A stretch of 64,000 bases of DNA from a virus (IMGVR_UViG_3300027754_005796:96001-160000); one strand, 5' to 3'; counted from the stretch's first letter, positions 7,153 to 62,115 are shown. Notes: a model not told the origin generated them from the letters alone. A program made the numbers and translations.

Positions 7153-7296
7153 ATGCCCGAACAGGACTCGAACCTGTACAAAGAGTGCCATTCCGGGCTA
7201 AAGGAATCGAACCTTTATTTCTTGCTTAGAGCAGGCGTTTTGACCGCTTTAAACTAAGCCCGTAAAACTCTTGTGCTACCATTACACTATCGGGCA
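7153..7296 (-). tRNA. tRNA-Gln(TTG) interrupted in the anticodon by a 73-nt insert
   Basis: 5' half TGCCCGATAGTGTAATGGTAGCACAAGAGTTTT (7296-7264); 3' half TGGCACTCTTTGTACAGGTTCGAGTCCTGTTCGGGCA (7190-7154). Joined, they give a canonical cloverleaf with loop TT-TTG-GC; no encoded CCA. Confidence 0.8.
7191..7263 (-). tRNA. Nested tRNA-like element (CTA in anticodon loop; shortened anticodon arm)
   Basis: A-CGGGCT TA GTTT-AAAGCGGTCA-AAAC G CCTG-CTCTAAG-CAAG AAAT AAAGG-TTCGATT-CCTTT AGCCCG-GAA. Confidence 0.7.
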
Positions 7297-7348: not shown

Positions 7349-7362
7349 TTTTTTTGTTAGCT

Positions 7363-7444
7363 GTCGCTGACTCAGAATTGGATACTGAACTGGTCTTCTA
7401 AACCAGCGGTGAAAACCATGTGGGTTCGAGTCCCACCAGCGACA
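7363..7444 (+). tRNA. tRNA-Arg(TCT) with long variable arm
   Basis: GTCGCTG/CAGCGAC acceptor, TCAG/CTGA D-stem, CTGGT-CTTCTAA-ACCAG anticodon arm, GGT-GAAA-ACC variable hairpin, GTGGG-TTCGAGT-CCCAC T-arm. Confidence 0.85.
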
Positions 7445-7660
7445 TTATTCAATGATTCCATAGTGTTTAGCCCACTTGCGAATTGCGTTATCAGAAACAT
7501 CGTACATTTTTGCAATTTGCGTGTATGCAGTAGTGGCTATAAGTTGTTCAAGTTCATTTTTTGTAGGCAGGTTCGGAATTTTGCTCTTGCACTTTTTGCG
7601 AGAAATGTCAAAGTAACGCCTGTCACAGCAGGAGTTAGTCATGTCCGAAGAGCAAATCAA
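7445..7660 (-). pseudogene. Isolated HTH resembling the C-terminus of the HNH nuclease at 6381 (probable remnant)
   Basis: PTKNELEQLI..YTQIAKMYDVSDNAIRKWAKHYGI vs KTLEKEV..NIKIGEKYGVSEATVRNWLKKFDI. Confidence 0.55.
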
Positions 7661-39326: not shown

Positions 39327-40009
39327 TGTACACGAATAAAATTTTGGTGAGCAAGGCAGTCCAAGGCTCACAGTTTTGCGATGAGTTTCTTTTAAAAAAT
39401 CCCTATTCTTTAATTTATGTGCTAAGTCACAACAGTAAGGGTGCGGTCGGCATTATGTTGAACGGTCCTAGTATCGGCAAATTAAATTCAATTTATTTAA
39501 AAGATGTGGTTGATGCGCCTGAAGGCCAATATGATAAATTCAAACAAATGTACATGGATGGTGTTTTCAAAGATTTACAGCTTCATCTTGCTGGCCCAAG
39601 AAAAACTAAAGGGGTCTATTTCCTGCACGGTTATGGTGATTCTGCTTGTGTCTTGAAGCCATCTCAGGAGCCGACCTTAAATGATGCTCTCCAAGAAACT
39701 ATTTTTGGCCAGCCTGAAAAATCCAAGAAAAAATATGAAGTGGTTGATGGAGTTTTCTTTGGCACTCCATATACCTTTGCGCACATTGTCGAAAACGATA
39801 GACTTTTAGAAAATAAATACAAGTTTTTCACAGGAGAAACTTGTTGGGTTCCGGGGCAGTTGGAAACTGAGGTTCAAGCTGGCTTCTGGGCCGTGGTTGA
39901 CTACAACTCTGATTATTTTTTTGACCATATAAAATGCGAAAGTTTGGCTCGATCTTATAGAAAAATCGAGCCAAACTTTTTTTCTCGCATCAAACCTTCG
40001 CTAAATTAA
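39326..40009 (+). CDS. YqgE/AlgH (DUF179) family protein
   Basis: [38 protein letters not shown]. Confidence 0.75.
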
Positions 40010-41073
40010 TCCAGAGATACAATCTCGCCACCTTCGGGAGTGCAGATTGATCTCAAGATTAATGTGGTAATTTTATCATTAACAAACTGCACATGCCCAT
40101 CGCCAAAGACTGCGTTGACACCACTTGAATGATAGGAGAAAGGTTCGTCATTGGGACCGCAGTTGTTGAGACTCCAAGGGCAAGTAGTAGGGCCACCTAT
40201 TGGAGATGCATTGTTGTTGATTTTAGCGACTTTGCTGTCGGTTGCTTGGTGGGGGCCAGAAACACCATTGCCAACATCTGGTTCTGCCCAACGATAGTTG
40301 TTTCTCATGCCACTTGGGGAGGCTACGGAGGAACCGCCGTAAGCTTTGTAGTTGGATTTCATGTAAGGACTGATGCTCTCGTGTGATTTGCCAGCATCTT
40401 CAATAATTGCAATTGTGTTGCTTGTGCCGTCCATTACAGCAGCAATGCTTCTGCCGCCTCTGCGAATTACATTCATCCCATTGGTGCTGATGTTTGTGAT
40501 TGTAGGAGGACTGGCTGTTCCAGCGCCAATAACTTCGTAGTGAAGAGTGAGAAGACCCGGAGTTTTGTATAGGTTGCATGTATTGCTGATTGTACAACGG
40601 CAACTTGTGTTTGGGTCGATGTCAACATATGCAACTGGCATGTAATCAACTTGTCCATAGTTTTGGGGATCATTCTTTGAACCAAAAGATGGACAGAGGA
40701 AGGATTTGATAACTTGTTGCCCTGCTCCATTTGCAACATTTGTTGGATGATCATAAGGAATTGTGGTATCGAATAGCTTGGCAGCGTTGTCCTGTTCGAC
40801 ATATGGAAGAATGTGTGTGTAGGTTGAATTTACATCAAAAGTGGTAGACAAATTGGCAGAAAGACCTTCACCGCTTGTTGGCAAGTAGCCCATAGTGCTT
40901 TGATAATTATGAAGAGCCAACCCGATTTGCTTCATGTTGTTACTGCAACTCATTCTGTTTGCAGCCTCCCGTACCTTCTGCACGGCTGGGACCAGTAAAC
41001 CTACCAATACGGCGATAATTGCAATTACGACCAATAGTTCAATAAGCGTAAAAGCTTTTCTTTTTGCGTTCAT
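40006..41073 (-). CDS. DUF1559 prepilin-type N-terminal cleavage/methylation protein (H-X9-DG C-terminus)
   Basis: [53 protein letters not shown]; DGTSNT; [16 protein letters not shown]. Confidence 0.95.
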
Positions 41074-49581: not shown

Positions 49582-49842
49582 TTATTCAAGAATATCATCA
49601 ATATCATCAACGAATACTGGTGTATTCTCACCAAGCCATGCGCCAAGAACATTGAATTCAAAGTATTCAATAGCATCTTCAGTTGACATATCTTTGCTAA
49701 GAATTTCTATGCATTTTTGAACGCTGTAAGAAACAACGCATGGCTCCCCGCATCTCCTCGCAATTCCGATAATCGCCTCGTCAAATCCATCGGCAAAAAG
49801 AGCATCTGGATTTGACTCGGCAATTATCTCACGCAAACTCAT
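49582..49842 (-). CDS. Phage-type hypothetical protein
   Basis: ADGFDEAIIG...EDAIEYFEFNVLGAWLGENTPVF. Confidence 0.75.
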   Translation of the reverse strand: MSLREIIAESNPDALFADGFDEAIIGIARRCGEPCVVSYSVQKCIEILSKDMSTEDAIEYFEFNVLGAWLGENTPVFVDDIDDILE

Positions 49843-50402
49843 TTTTTTGCTTCCTTATCGAGGCCTAGAATTTCTGCTGGCTTTTTGGCTTTGCCCAGCA
49901 ACTTTTCCTTTTTCTCAAAATAAGCACTCCACAGTTCTGCGGATGCTTTTTTGTCTGATTCTTTTCCGAAAGGTCCAAAATCAACTAATTCTTTGTTCTG
50001 AGTTTTGGCGATGATCACGCAGGACTCATGGGCAGCTAAACTCACGAGAGGATGCCTGTCCTCTAGCAATCTAATAAGGCAGTCTGTAGGATCTTTCTTG
50101 ATGCCAAAATACCATGCTGCTGCGACTCTGTGGTTGTAATCGGTGCTTTTGACACTCAGTTCCACTAGCTCATCGTTGTTTTGATTTGCGAGGCTTTTTG
50201 CCATCGCCATGCAACGATTTGCAATCACCGCCATCTCAAGCCGAGTAAAGGTTTTTTCCTCGTCTGGGACCAATTTAGAGTCCGATGTGCTACCAGCACC
50301 TCCTTGACCAAGGGGGGCAGCAGCGGGTTTAGCTCAACCTGCTTCTGCCTTATGTTTCAAACATGTAAATACAACACCTATAACAACAAGATAGCGAAAC
50401 AT
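49839..50402 (-). CDS. Secreted HEAT-like protein with in-frame TGA at codon 23 (candidate selenoprotein)
   Basis: MFRYLVVIGVVFTCLKHKAEAG-(TGA 50336-50334)-AKPAAAPLGQGG..., in frame with ORF 49839-50273; HEAT-like LIRLLEDRHPLV. Confidence 0.6.
50289..50324 (-). promoter_or_regulatory. Candidate bacterial SECIS hairpin
   Basis: GCTGCTGCCCCCCTT-GGTC-AAGGAGGTGCTGGTAGC; G-initiated apical loop 24 nt after the UGA. Confidence 0.5.
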
Positions 50403-57700: not shown

Positions 57701-58275
57701 AATTTACGCCAGCTTTGTTCTGGCGTTGGTACAGCGTACATGACGGGAACCGCCATGTCGGTCACTTCATGCTCCTTGCGAAAAAGATTGTACACTTTTT
57801 CCAAGGAGTCGAGAGAGCAAAATGCGATTGTCTCAAGAGTGAAATTTTTGGTCCAGTCAGGGTAAGGCCTTAAATTTTTGGCGCATGTGATCGTCATAAT
57901 TTCTGGTGAGATTTTAAACAAATCGCTCAGATTAACCAATTTTTCTTCTGGTGTTGCTCCATCTACAAAATCATCAGTTGTAAGGGTTCGACCGTTCTGA
58001 AATTGCGCTACCCAATAGCTGGGCCACTTACTCGTGAGAGCGTCGAAATCATTGATTACTAGCGTGCGCATTTCCTCTGGGGTGATTTTTCTACTAACAA
58101 CTGAGCTAGAATATTTGATGTATTCGTCAAGTGCCGATCTCATTTCCTCGTGTTTGTTCAATAAATCTTCAATGGAAAAAATCTGCCCCTTCAATTGATC
58201 CGAACCACTTCTGAGGCATGTGTTCTTGGCGAAAATCGACATCATCGTGTCGGCAATATTGTTGTTGTGGCTCAT
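57679..58275 (-). CDS. Hypothetical protein
   Basis: 198-aa ORF, RBS GGAGG/AAGGT. Confidence 0.65.
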   Translation of the reverse strand: MSHNNNIADTMMSIFAKNTCLRSGSDQLKGQIFSIEDLLNKHEEMRSALDEYIKYSSSVVSRKITPEEMRTLVINDFDALTSKWPSYWVAQFQNGRTLTTDDFVDGATPEEKLVNLSDLFKISPEIMTITCAKNLRPYPDWTKNFTLETIAFCSLDSLEKVYNLFRKEHEVTDMAVPVMYAVPTPEQSWRKFCLSEVV

Positions 58276-58321
58276 GGGTCTACCTTACCTCCAAAAGCGG
58301 TGAAAATAAAGTCTTTCTAAT

Positions 58322-58356
58322 AAAAAAACCCCCCAAGTTTTTTGCCTTGGGGGGTT
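58322..58356 (-). terminator. Intrinsic terminator after helicase
   Basis: AACCCCCCAAG...CTTGGGGGGTT with an A-run on the + side. Confidence 0.8.
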
Positions 58357-58372
58357 GGAGAAACAGGTTGCA

Positions 58373-60559
58373 CTAGGCAACTTTGTTACTGTTGCCGAAA
58401 AGCAGGGGGAACTGCTCGGACAACTGACGGCGGTAGCGAGACAAGATCAGGAACCCAGCCTCAAGCTCTTGGGCCGTTTCAAGGCCAGCGTTAAGCAACC
58501 AATGGGCAACAGCAGCATCAGGCTTGTTGAACCCGTGACCGTCACGCTGGTTGGCACCATCGCAAACGCCCAGCATATAGCCGAACGCAGCACGGACCTC
58601 AGCGGAACGATCAGGCGTGAGCTCAAGGCGCACTCCCTTCTTGGCACGGGTGACTTCCCGTTCATGGATGCCTTCTACCTTGCTCTTGGCCTTGGCCTTG
58701 AGCTTGGCAGCTTCCAACTTGCCCTGCTCCTCCACCGCCCGTTGCAGACGAGCTTGGAATTCCTCCTCGCTCTCAACCTCGGGCTGGGAAGCGCCCACGG
58801 GAGTAGCCGTGAGGCGCTGACCTTTAATGCTGTTATCGATAGATCGTTGGATCGTATCGATCTTGTCTACCAGCAGCTTCTGGATGTGGATGTCCAGCGG
58901 GTGGTTGCTGACCATGCGGACGATCTCCACCTTGTTCGCAGTCTGTCCCAAACGGCAGATGCGATCCTCGGCCTGCCAGTTGGCAGCGGGGGTCCAGTCG
59001 AGATCGACAAACAGGGCCTTGGCAGCGTGCGTGAGAGTCAATCCCACACCGCCTGCACGGATGGTGATGCCAATGCCCTTGAATTGACCCGCTTGGAACG
59101 CACGCACGATCTCCTGTCGGCGTTCAGGAGAGGTGTCGCCCGTGATGAGTGCCCAGCCGGGACGAGCCAGTAAAGCATTCATCGGGGCGAGGTGTGCGCT
59201 GAACACGATCAGCGGGCATTCTTGCTCCTCGCAGTCCTGCACATATTCGAGCATGGCAGGAACACGAGACTGGGCCAGTTCCGCACGCAAGGCAGCGAAC
59301 TGCGTGAACGGAGGCAGCGAGTCCTCGAGCTCGTTGTCATACCCAGACCACGCCTCGTCAAGCTTTTTAACAAGCTTTTGGGAGGGGTCCACCATGACAT
59401 TGGTGTATGTCTTGGTGGGCAGTTCAGGCAGAACATCGGCACGCAGACGGCGCAGCATCACACGGCGCAGCAACTCAGGCACGATGGGCTGAGGCTTGCC
59501 GTACTCGAAGGCGTAGCCGTTATGGTGGGCGTTGAACAACCCTTGGAAGTTCTCGAAAGACCGAAACACTTCCTTAGCCACACCCACGGTGTCCAGCACA
59601 CCCCACAAATCTTCAGGGTGGTTGGTCAGCGGGCTACCAGTAAGAGCGGTGACCTTGGCAACAAGGTTACCAATTTCTTTTGTCTTGCGGGTGCGTGCAG
59701 CCTTTTTGTTTTTGTAGTCGTGAGCCTCGTCCACGATCAGGTTGACCTGTGAGGCTTGCGGGTATTTGTCCCTCAAAGCTTGGCGAAAAGCGTTGAGGGT
59801 TGCGAAGTATCGATCAACTGGTTGACCTTTTACCTTCGCAGGTGTAATGAACTCTTCAGGAAGAATGTCATTGTTAATGATGACAATCTCGCCCTGCTTG
59901 GGCCAGCGGAACGACTCACGACCGTTCAGCACGGTCGGGGCCAGATCGGGTCGCCATTTGCGAACCTCGTCAACCCAATTGTACTTGAGTCCTGCACGGC
60001 ATATGACCATGCCCTTGCCTCCCTGCTCAATGCCCATGAGGGACTGAACAGTTTTGCCAAGGCCCATCTCGTCGCCCAGCAGAGCACGCTTCTTGCTAGA
60101 CAAGAAGCTCACTCCCTCGACTTGGTAGGGGTACAGGCCAAGATCAGCAGCTTTCTGCGCCTGTGCGTTGACTTGCACGATGCGCAGGCTGGGAGCAACC
60201 TCGAGGCCGATACGGTCGGCAACCTCGAGGATTCGGGGGCGGTCAGACACATCGGCGCTGACAGTCCACCACTTGTTGGCCTTGTCCCATCGTGCGCCGG
60301 GAAGGGAACGAAGCAGATCGAGATTTTCGGGCTCGTAACCCGTGATGACCTTGAGGTCGCTCGTGAGAACACGATGCACGCTCTTCTGTTGGATGTCCAC
60401 ACCCTTGCGTGCTGGCACGCAATTGGTGCAAAAGTTTGTGTACTTGGCTTTTCCAGTCGTCTCTTCTTCGGTGCGCTGGGTGAAACCCGCACCCATCAAA
60501 ACCTGCGCCTTGCAGGAGTTGCAGCGCACATTGAACTTGTTCTTGAAGAAATGAGCCAT
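58373..60559 (-). CDS. SNF2-family (HARP/SMARCAL1-like) helicase
   Basis: LYPYQVEG, GDEMGLGKT, DEAH, LTGSP, GVGLTLT, QAEDRICRLGQ; N-terminal Zn finger and ARWD..WW HARP-like segment. Confidence 0.92.
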   Translation of the reverse strand: MAHFFKNKFNVRCNSCKAQVLMGAGFTQRTEEETTGKAKYTNFCTNCVPARKGVDIQQKSVHRVLTSDLKVITGYEPENLDLLRSLPGARWDKANKWWTVSADVSDRPRILEVADRIGLEVAPSLRIVQVNAQAQKAADLGLYPYQVEGVSFLSSKKRALLGDEMGLGKTVQSLMGIEQGGKGMVICRAGLKYNWVDEVRKWRPDLAPTVLNGRESFRWPKQGEIVIINNDILPEEFITPAKVKGQPVDRYFATLNAFRQALRDKYPQASQVNLIVDEAHDYKNKKAARTRKTKEIGNLVAKVTALTGSPLTNHPEDLWGVLDTVGVAKEVFRSFENFQGLFNAHHNGYAFEYGKPQPIVPELLRRVMLRRLRADVLPELPTKTYTNVMVDPSQKLVKKLDEAWSGYDNELEDSLPPFTQFAALRAELAQSRVPAMLEYVQDCEEQECPLIVFSAHLAPMNALLARPGWALITGDTSPERRQEIVRAFQAGQFKGIGITIRAGGVGLTLTHAAKALFVDLDWTPAANWQAEDRICRLGQTANKVEIVRMVSNHPLDIHIQKLLVDKIDTIQRSIDNSIKGQRLTATPVGASQPEVESEEEFQARLQRAVEEQGKLEAAKLKAKAKSKVEGIHEREVTRAKKGVRLELTPDRSAEVRAAFGYMLGVCDGANQRDGHGFNKPDAAVAHWLLNAGLETAQELEAGFLILSRYRRQLSEQFPLLFGNSNKVA

Positions 60560-60599
60560 TGTAGTCGCTCCGCTTGTGTTGAAAGTGACTGTTGTCTAT

Positions 60600-60632
60600 A
60601 GTCCTACAGGAAGTTTTGTTTCTTAAATACAA
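60600..60632 (-). promoter_or_regulatory. Conserved 33-bp upstream motif, copy 2
   Basis: TTGTATTTAAGAAACAAAACTTCCTGTAGGACT. Confidence 0.7.
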
Positions 60633-60683
60633 TTAAATTCAAAATTTTTTGAATTTTTGAAAAATTTATTTTGATATAAGAAA

Positions 60684-60713
60684 AGACGACAAGAACCTAA
60701 GTCCTTGTCGTCT
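60684..60713 (-). terminator. Intrinsic terminator
   Basis: AGACGACAAG...CTTGTCGTCT with an A-run on the + side. Confidence 0.7.
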
Positions 60714-60739
60714 CATGGTTTAGCTAATTTTTTCTTAAA

Positions 60740-61066
60740 TTAGCGTCGAAGACGGCCCAAAAGGCCAGTCTTGCCAGCAACAGCATTACAGGAGCCGTTA
60801 CAGCAGTCACATGGGGCTGCTGTCTTGACGGGCTCGACCTTCTTGACTTCAACAGCCTTGACCTCGACGGGCTTGACAAGGTTCAGGCGAACCTTCTCAC
60901 GGCGAGTGAGGGGTTGATAGACAGTTGAGGCGTTACAGTTGCTACACTCGCCTTTGGCAGCAGCCTTCGCAACGGTTGCGGGAGCTTGGGCCTTAGCGGG
61001 GCCTTCTCCTGCAAACACGGTGGTGGCAGCGAAAACAAAAGCGATAGCAGCGATAAAATTCTTCAT
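60740..61066 (-). CDS. Small secreted Cys-rich protein
   Basis: Signal peptide ending VFA; CSNC, CDCCNGSC, GLLGRLRR tail. Confidence 0.7.
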   Translation of the reverse strand: MKNFIAAIAFVFAATTVFAGEGPAKAQAPATVAKAAAKGECSNCNASTVYQPLTRREKVRLNLVKPVEVKAVEVKKVEPVKTAAPCDCCNGSCNAVAGKTGLLGRLRR

Positions 61067-61153
61067 CTTAGAAACTCTCCAAATAAAATAAGCGCCAATC
61101 TGGCACTACTAAGGATAATATATCGTGCTTAGCTTAAATTCGCAATAGCACTC

Positions 61154-62050
61154 CTACTGGGCATATTCCGTGAGTAGACGGCAAACTGCAAGTTCTTTGG
61201 CTTTTGCCTCTAATTCTACCGTGAGTTTGCGACCTTTCCAGCACTCGGGGAAATCACTCTGGGAAATATAGTCATGGTGTTGATTTTCATTTTCACCACC
61301 CCAACCATTTTTTGGACTGGAAAGATGGAAAAGCGGTTCTCTTCCGTCCCAAGTTTCGCAAGCCAAATCTGTTGCCTCAGCGATTGTGTAGCTGTCGCTG
61401 TTGCAGCGGTGATGGTGTGCGTCGTAGACCAATGGAACGCCCACGGTTTCGCACAGTTCAAACAGGTCATGCGGAGTGTAAGTAGTGTCATCATTTTCCA
61501 CGGTCAAAAGGCTACGCACCTTGGGACTCAGACGGTAAAAATTCGCTGCAAAATCAATCAGAGCTTGCTTTTTGTTGCCAAAGGCACCGCCCCCATGAAT
61601 GTTGATGACATCAGCGTTGACCCATTCGGCAACCATCCCTTGGTACTCAAGTTCTGCAATTGATTTGCGAACTGTTTCAGGATTCTTACTGTTTAACACC
61701 ACAAACTGGTCAGGGTGAAAACAGGTACGAATATTATTTTCTGCTGCATATCGCCCACACGCTTTGAAGTCGGAAATTATTTTCTCGTGTTCGGGTAGTT
61801 GCTCAATTTTATATCCTGCCTTGTCGTGCGTGTATATCGGTAGTATATGACTGTTGATACGGAAGCAACCTATGCCCTTGGCCTTGCAGTATTGCAGGGC
61901 TTGCATAAGCGAATTTGCGTTGGTTTGGCAGAGATTCGATAACTTTTGAATTGCTGTTGACCGTTCCAGTTTCAATATATGCGTGACAGTCGTTGTTACA
62001 AACTTGATGGGTTCTTCAGCAAAAGTACAACATAGTCCAAATCTTATCAT
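61154..62050 (-). CDS. uvsE: UV-damage endonuclease
   Basis: RFGLCC, FRINS, HPDQFVVLNS, INIHGGG, TVENDD, YDAHHH, HHDYI, ELEAKAKELA. Confidence 0.95.
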   Translation of the reverse strand: MIRFGLCCTFAEEPIKFVTTTVTHILKLERSTAIQKLSNLCQTNANSLMQALQYCKAKGIGCFRINSHILPIYTHDKAGYKIEQLPEHEKIISDFKACGRYAAENNIRTCFHPDQFVVLNSKNPETVRKSIAELEYQGMVAEWVNADVINIHGGGAFGNKKQALIDFAANFYRLSPKVRSLLTVENDDTTYTPHDLFELCETVGVPLVYDAHHHRCNSDSYTIAEATDLACETWDGREPLFHLSSPKNGWGGENENQHHDYISQSDFPECWKGRKLTVELEAKAKELAVCRLLTEYAQ

Positions 62051-62115
62051 GATCGCCTCCAATGCGTCTCCGAAAGCTCCAACCGCATCGATAGGTGCGG
62101 TTGGAGCGGAGTAGG

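Follow-up and report, generated by a model that had tools for sequence, protein, structure and literature searches.

A putative selenoprotein family of large phages, probably of Gemmataceae, with selenocysteine predicted at the extreme N-terminus of a presumably exported HEAT-like protein

The gene described here lies on the minus strand of a stretch of viral DNA of 64,000 nucleotides, which is called the window in the following; coordinates refer to it unless stated otherwise. The source record is a single-contig virus of 172,833 bp with a GC content of 39.8% and a completeness of 40% according to CheckV. In the list of open reading frames the gene starts with a TTG at 50273. It was verified that the same frame is open up to an ATG at 50402, 13 nt past the TAA stop codon (50418-50416) of the upstream neighbour, a gene of 95 codons. 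Read from this ATG, the frame encodes MFRYLVVIGVVFTCLKHKAEAG, followed by a TGA at 50336-50334, and then AKPAAAPLGQGG and onward. The precursor consists of 22 residues, the TGA codon and 164 sense codons, and it ends with a second TGA at 49841-49839. A hydrophobic, signal-peptide-like N-terminus of 22 residues followed by a single in-frame TGA had been the starting point of the original prediction, and it was confirmed on the sequence. The same is true for an imperfect hairpin of 36 nt, which starts 9 nt past the TGA and carries a GGUC loop 24 nt past it, as folded with RNAfold. A signal-peptide-like ORF that runs into a TGA and is followed by at least 80 open codons occurs only this once in the 172.8-kb contig. 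The features of the gene are compiled in Table 1.

Table 1. Features of the gene and of its proposed mRNA element, in window coordinates.
Feature	Position	Strand	Basis or remark
Whole gene	49839..50402	-	187-codon precursor and TGA stop; same frame continuous in all homologous loci
Putative signal peptide, M1-G22	50337..50402	-	Read from sequence
In-frame TGA, proposed selenocysteine codon, residue 23	50334..50336	-	TGA shared at the aligned position by 14 contigs (8 lineages)
Translated Pro/Ala/Gly-rich linker, residues 24-53, also carrying the candidate SECIS	50244..50333	-	Codon-position differences
Conserved core of the candidate SECIS, 7-position stem around the GGUC tetraloop	50299..50316	-	Alignment A5; model R1
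GGUC tetraloop	50306-50309	-	Starts 24 nt past the TGA
Extended hairpin (36 nt) as present in the lineage of the window, with lower stem, C/A mismatch and two bulged U's	50289..50324	-	RNAfold
All-alpha HEAT-like repeat domain, residues 54-170	49893..50243	-	AlphaFold2, pLDDT >90
C-terminal short motif A-E-I-L-G-L after Lys-rich tail	49860..49877	-	x-E-I-L-G-[ILV] recurs in the wider family
Stop codon, TGA	49839..49841	-	Overlaps the ATG of the next gene (ATGA)

The N-terminus of the window protein has a basic n-region (MFR), a hydrophobic core of 12 residues and a polar c-region (KHKAEA), with A-x-A ahead of G-U, U being the proposed selenocysteine (Sec). By reading, a basic n-region, a hydrophobic core of 10-16 residues and small residues at positions -3 and -1 were found in all eight lineages that are introduced below. 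The putative cleavage site is located 1-3 residues ahead of the Sec position across the lineages, and between A-E-A and G-U in the window protein. Because of this layout and the small residues at -3 and -1, cleavage by signal peptidase I is to be expected, most likely after A-E-A, and the mature protein would begin with Gly-Sec. A lipoprotein signal with a lipobox (L-[AS]-[GA]-C) was also considered. Positions -2 and -1 are mostly A-G, but the signal was rejected because position -3, where a hydrophobic residue is required, is occupied by E, K, S, R or G, and because the core and Sec are separated by a polar c-region (5-7 residues).

An AlphaFold2 model, which was built on an alignment of 43 sequences, contains a confident all-alpha domain (pLDDT >90), while the first 50 residues are of low confidence. 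The best PDB matches of this model in a Foldseek search were a designed alphaRep protein and the HEAT repeats of PP2A-A, with E values of at least 0.13. The Pfam families HEAT_2 (PF13646) and HEAT (PF02985) scored 19.3 bits against a cut-off of 27.7 and 16.8 bits against a cut-off of 23.5, respectively. The earlier description of the protein as HEAT-like thus holds as a resemblance at the level of the fold, but the match to HEAT_2 remains below the gathering threshold of Pfam. Apart from the likeness to HEAT repeats, nothing that would point to a function came out of the fold searches against PDB and BFVD, and a feature search in the Atlas returned only leads below 0.9, which were small HEAT proteins. 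In most members of the wider family (P0014-P0044), including the most distant ones, a disordered tail rich in Lys is followed by the motif x-E-I-L-G-[ILV], with which the protein ends.

A search with the protein retrieved five clusters of 132-149 amino acids, which covered only the C-terminal 70% of the query. The contigs of these clusters were compared together with four more metagenome loci and three members from a wider HMM search. In every locus fetched the hidden N-terminal piece was present, i.e., a signal-peptide-like ORF, a TGA and an open frame. Fourteen contigs, which come from different samples and represent eight lineages with protein identities from 91% to about 32%, have the TGA at the same position of the alignment. 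With their identities to the window protein the lineages are lineage 1 (the window, L001 and L002; 72-91%), lineage 2 (L005 and L008; about 61-66%), lineage 3 (L003, L004 and L009; about 52%), lineage 4 (L006; about 46-51%), lineage 5 (L010 and L011; about 38-41%), lineage 6 (L013; about 34%), lineage 7 (L012; about 39%) and lineage 8 (L018; about 32%). In all of them the signal-peptide-like ORF ends, mostly with A-G-TGA, in the frame that is then open into the domain. The original prediction had proposed that homologs should have either TGA or Cys at this codon. For the TGA this was borne out, as it was present at the aligned codon in all relatives with available DNA whose called protein had no signal peptide, and neither Trp nor another sense codon was found there. 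No homolog was found with a Cys that aligns reliably to the Sec position. Two relatives that lack the TGA, P0039 (L014) and P0052 (L017), have a Cys shortly past the signal peptide, e.g., in V-G-C-G, in a segment that is not confidently alignable.

The wider family comprises 76 HMM matches, 42 of them below 1e-10. All of the genomic contexts that were seen are phage contexts; the L017 member is situated between a portal gene and the gene for a giant polyvalent protein, and L014 has neighbour genes in common with the window. A scan of species genomes yielded no cellular homolog, scans of IMG/VR with two alignments yielded no further relative, and a blastn search of the region against a phage database gave no match.

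The N-terminal segments of the TGA-less relatives are rich in Cys, and downstream of the signal peptide, ahead of the HEAT-like domain, the motif C-[STNV]-P-[ST]-R is conserved (L014:4001-4684, L017:3944-4438, P0017, P0024, P0030, P0033, P0039, P0041 and P0052). It fits C-x-P-x-R, the formylglycine recognition motif of sulfatases. A sulfatase-type site was rejected for the TGA-containing forms, from which the motif is absent. Planctomycetes are rich in sulfatases, and thus the TGA-less phage proteins might be modified by maturases of the host. The motif hints that different reactive groups might do the same job in the two types of protein.

Downstream of the TGA a GGTC is present at a distance of exactly 21 or 24 nt in ten relatives. 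It is flanked by a helix of 5-7 bp, the sequence of which is wholly different between the lineages (CCCCUU/AAGGGG, GCCUCUU/AAGAGGC, GGCCUU/AAGGCC, ACGCCUU/AAGGCGU, CUCUC/GAGAG, CCCCU/AGGGG and CUUGCU/AGCAAG). In an alignment of 11 sequences (A5) the loop is invariant, 85.7% of the cells are paired, and two-sided compensatory changes occur at all seven stem pairs. None of 500 shuffles reached this pairing and covariation, and when the register was slid the pairing decreased to 27-61%. A hairpin GCCC-AGUU-GGGC is present at the same place in L012, with the loop AGUU, in which the central GU is kept. The proposed check for a covarying hairpin had therefore a positive outcome; the hairpin as it had been described for the window has to be reduced to its upper stem of 5-7 bp and the GGUC loop, because the bulged U's and the lower stem are peculiar to the window's lineage. 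Conservation of the lower stem does not extend past the window, L001 and L002.

With RNAfold a minimum free energy of -17.1 kcal/mol was obtained for the window hairpin (z = -0.9), and 40 of 200 shuffled sequences folded as well. The fold energies of single sequences were no better than those of shuffles in general, with z values of -0.4 to -1.3. As the fold energy of the single window sequence is ordinary, the case beyond chance rests on the comparison of the lineages. The covariance model R1 scored 43.4 bits at the conserved core, and neither this model nor a scan with a regular expression revealed a second copy of the hairpin in the 172.8-kb contig. No SECIS family of Rfam matched between 49500 and 50700 at E <= 10. 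The conservation of the peptide L-G-Q-G could result partly from protein-level selection.

On the phage contig, which is estimated to be 40% complete, no tRNA-Sec, no selB and no selD were found, and a selenoprotein of this phage would thus depend on SelA, SelB, SelC and SelD of the host. ARAGORN called only a tRNA(CUA), a long-arm tRNA(UCU) and a tmRNA on the contig. A match to the tRNA-Sec model with 42.6 bits, below the threshold, was rejected as it is the UCU tRNA, with a 7/5 layout of acceptor and T-arm, and not a tRNA-Sec. This tRNA of 84 nt (7362-7445, plus strand; anticodon UCU, for an Arg codon) has a long variable arm of the class-II type and the discriminator A, and it scores 51.3 bits on the general tRNA model versus 42.6 bits on the tRNA-Sec model.

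A few further observations concern the phage genome. The tRNA with the anticodon CUA (amber suppressor, labelled Pyl) was called by ARAGORN at 7191-7264, within 7153-7296 on the minus strand; after 7191-7263 had been removed in silico, the flanks were called as tRNA-Gln(UUG). TAG is the rarest stop codon of this phage. The predicted phage tmRNA is located outside of the window (genome C1:50266-50616; locus L021) and has the tag peptide DETVHALAA. The block 58001-62000 has a GC content of 48-54% versus about 38% for the genome and may have been acquired recently. A helicase of the SNF2 family (58373-60559) and the UV-endonuclease UvdE (61154-62062) are encoded there.

The best host marker found in the phage is a DUF1559 prepilin-like gene at 40006-41073 (minus strand), which has a PF07596 match of 149 bits and an N-methylation motif. 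It was searched against 185,579 species genomes. The best matches were Limnoglobus roseus, several Fimbriiglobus MAGs and Gemmatales MAGs, with identities of 57-63%, and the 80 matches listed are essentially all from Planctomycetota. From the similarity of this one gene, the host is probably a freshwater planctomycete of the family Gemmataceae. The genes for Sec insertion were then examined in Limnoglobus, two Fimbriiglobus MAGs and Gemmata algarum. In these genomes SelB (336-376 bits, cut-off 242), tRNA-Sec (94-96 nt, anticodon UCA, 70-73 bits), SelD and SelA are present. The Sec machinery that the original prediction had demanded from a candidate host is thus found in the most likely host family. 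SelB is above the cut-off in 70 of the 81 Gemmataceae genomes sampled. No SelB above the cut-off was found in Zavarzinella formosa. Complete gene sets for Sec insertion have also been described for Gemmata obscuriglobus (PMC4807772).

The formate dehydrogenase (FDH) gene of Gemmata algarum has an in-frame TGA at the classic site A-R-I-U-H-S (L137, G004:C1:177500-182500, minus strand). The UGA is followed by the SECIS GUGCCC-GGUCU-GGGCAC, the loop of which lies at a distance of 18 nt. The loop GGUCU indicates that the SelB of the host family already reads a loop of the GGUC type. With the model R1 only weak, non-coding matches were obtained in four Gemmataceae genomes, and it was the FDH gene that led to the SECIS of the host family.

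The conserved in-frame TGA, the open frame and the translated linker would fit any mechanism of readthrough. The hairpin might slow down termination or aid a near-cognate tRNA, e.g., that for Trp, in a programmed readthrough of the UGA that does not involve SelB, and the result would be an exported full-length protein with an ordinary residue 23, which might be made in minor amounts so as to set a ratio. The distance between the UGA and the loop, which is 3-6 nt larger than in fdhF or the FDH gene of Gemmata, is in line with this. However, a hairpin that acts as a roadblock needs no fixed tetraloop, and here the GGUC loop is invariant while the stem varies freely, which is the signature of a sequence-specific reader of the loop such as SelB. 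In addition, the loop matches that of the FDH SECIS of the host family, and if any residue would serve at this position, a sense codon would be expected in at least one of the eight lineages. We therefore regard readthrough independent of SelB as improbable.

The translation of the stretch downstream of the TGA was analysed with three close pairs (window/L001, L005/L008 and L010/L011), using the codons that lie past the TGA and ahead of all called starts. The differences at codon positions 1, 2 and 3 were 1, 3 and 12, respectively, and 11 of the differing codons were synonymous and 4 were non-synonymous. Differences in length after the TGA are whole codons. The bias for third positions just past the TGA argues that the stretch is translated; judged by these comparisons, it is under protein-level selection ahead of any called start. 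A GGAGG-type ribosome-binding site precedes the ATG of the signal peptide in L003, L006, L012, L013 and L018, and none was seen ahead of the called internal starts.

These results bear on a division of the locus into two cistrons. All of the homologs have been annotated from an internal start by gene callers, and short hydrophobic leader peptides as well as regulatory hairpins do exist in bacteria. A leader of 22 hydrophobic codons could thus end at the TGA, the hairpin could regulate an internal start at TTG 50273 or ATG 50237 by coupling or attenuation, and the domain would be a cytoplasmic HEAT-like protein. Yet the 30-45 codons from the TGA to the called starts are open in the frame of the TGA in all lineages, and their preference for synonymous changes and for gains and losses of whole codons speaks against a separate leader peptide with an untranslated regulatory hairpin. 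The called starts also vary in position and type (TTG, ATG, GTG and Leu-coded), the good ribosome-binding sites are found at the signal-peptide ATG and not at these starts, and a signal peptide without a passenger has no obvious use. Hence, such an arrangement is held to be very unlikely as well.

Among the 329 ORFs of the phage with at least 100 amino acids, 142 end with TAA, 136 with TGA and 51 with TAG, and when TGA was opened the cover of ORFs rose to 250 kb on the genome of 173 kb. Both values argue that TGA is a normal stop codon in this phage. The terminal TGA of the gene has no GGUC hairpin downstream, which indicates that a TGA without SECIS ends translation in the phage, and the homologs in L012 and L009 also end with TGA. 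A lone in-frame stop codon in one metagenomic contig is usually a sequencing error, a sign that the phage or host is recoded genome-wide (code 4 or 25), or a nonsense mutation by which a gene decays. However, 14 independent assemblies from different samples share this TGA, which excludes sequencing error and recent decay, purifying selection acts on both sides of it, and recoding is rejected by the stop codon usage just given, so that an artefact or decay has hardly any probability.

The reading as a phage selenoprotein is supported by the conserved UGA, the frame, the covarying hairpin and the Sec machinery of the host family. By these comparisons, the locus displays the computational features that are usual for bacterial selenoprotein genes, except for a reliably aligned Cys homolog. 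We infer, with a probability of roughly 80%, that the gene encodes a phage selenoprotein which is made with SelABCD of the host and has Sec about two residues into a mature, exported HEAT-like protein. Translation would start at ATG 50402, and the UGA at codon 23 would be decoded as selenocysteine because the mRNA just downstream is predicted to fold into a SECIS of the bacterial type. Its short helix and the GGUC loop 24 nt past the UGA would recruit the host SelB with Sec-tRNA(Sec). The precursor would then be exported by the Sec pathway and cut by signal peptidase I, most likely after A-E-A. The predicted mature protein starts with Gly-Sec, which a flexible linker (about 30 residues) connects to a small domain of HEAT-like helical repeats, and it ends with a Lys-rich tail and the EILG motif. 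One may speculate that a protein-binding scaffold in the periplasm of the host presents the N-terminal selenol as a reactive handle for redox reactions, metal binding or covalent capture. That a family of large phages of Gemmataceae uses the Sec machinery of the host in this way, to place Sec as a tethered reactive handle at the extreme N-terminus of an exported HEAT-like protein, is considered likely.

A literature search found no published selenoprotein of a bacteriophage, and if the interpretation is correct, this would be, as far as found, the first family of this kind. Sec would then be used in a new way, as a reactive handle that sits on a flexible tether and not in an active site, and the known selenoproteins would be extended by a family without a redox motif, in which Sec is located at the mature N-terminus. 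The finding would also mean that phages can depend on a rare and host-specific recoding system, and the gene would be a marker of host range, since it could be expressed only in Sec-decoding hosts. All members with the TGA have been called as N-terminally truncated cytoplasmic proteins, and therefore exported phage selenoproteins would be invisible in databases. For planctomycete genetics, the short GGUC hairpin would offer a compact natural SECIS, and the FDH gene of Gemmata algarum provides a host-side reference for planctomycete SECIS elements.

With the HEAT and alphaRep proteins (PF13646) the phage protein shares paired antiparallel helices and the signature D-x-x-P-L-V-x-x-A-A, but it has only two or three repeats, and the V-D-F-G-P loop and the C-terminal EILG are specific for the phage family. 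The only viral selenoproteins named in a review are two glutathione peroxidases of poxviruses, i.e., MC066L of molluscum contagiosum virus and GPx4 of fowlpox virus, and in the latter the SECIS is located within the coding region (PMC8310308). Like these, the phage protein is encoded by a virus and is proposed to be made with the Sec machinery of the host. In contrast, the poxviruses are eukaryotic viruses with captured host GPx genes, a eukaryotic SECIS and SBP2-dependent decoding, whereas the element of the phage is of the bacterial type and no cellular homolog of its gene was found.

The SECIS loops of E. coli fdhF and of Moorella also have the sequence GGUC(U), and in natural SECIS elements of bacteria the loop can be roughly 16-37 nt away from the UGA. 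In E. coli fdhF the loop nucleotides G23 and U24 are, together with U17, conserved determinants for SelB (PMC8659212). Unlike fdhF and the FDH of Gemmata algarum, the gene described here is carried by a phage without Sec genes on its contig, its loop is located 21-24 nt past the UGA instead of 18 nt, and its Sec would reside 1-3 residues past the predicted signal peptidase site and not in the active site of an enzyme. The phage protein family is not known to include a selenoprotein and has no membership in Pfam. A bulged U, which is important in E. coli, is not conserved in the phage family. Compared with known selenoproteins, the position of Sec in a disordered segment and without a nearby Cys partner (of the CxxU or UxxC type) is atypical. 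The phage gene has the same arrangement as fdhF and the FDH gene of Gemmata algarum, in that an in-frame UGA precedes a short helix with GGUC in its apical loop that is still part of the ORF, and, as for these two genes, its decoding would need SelA, SelB, SelC and SelD.
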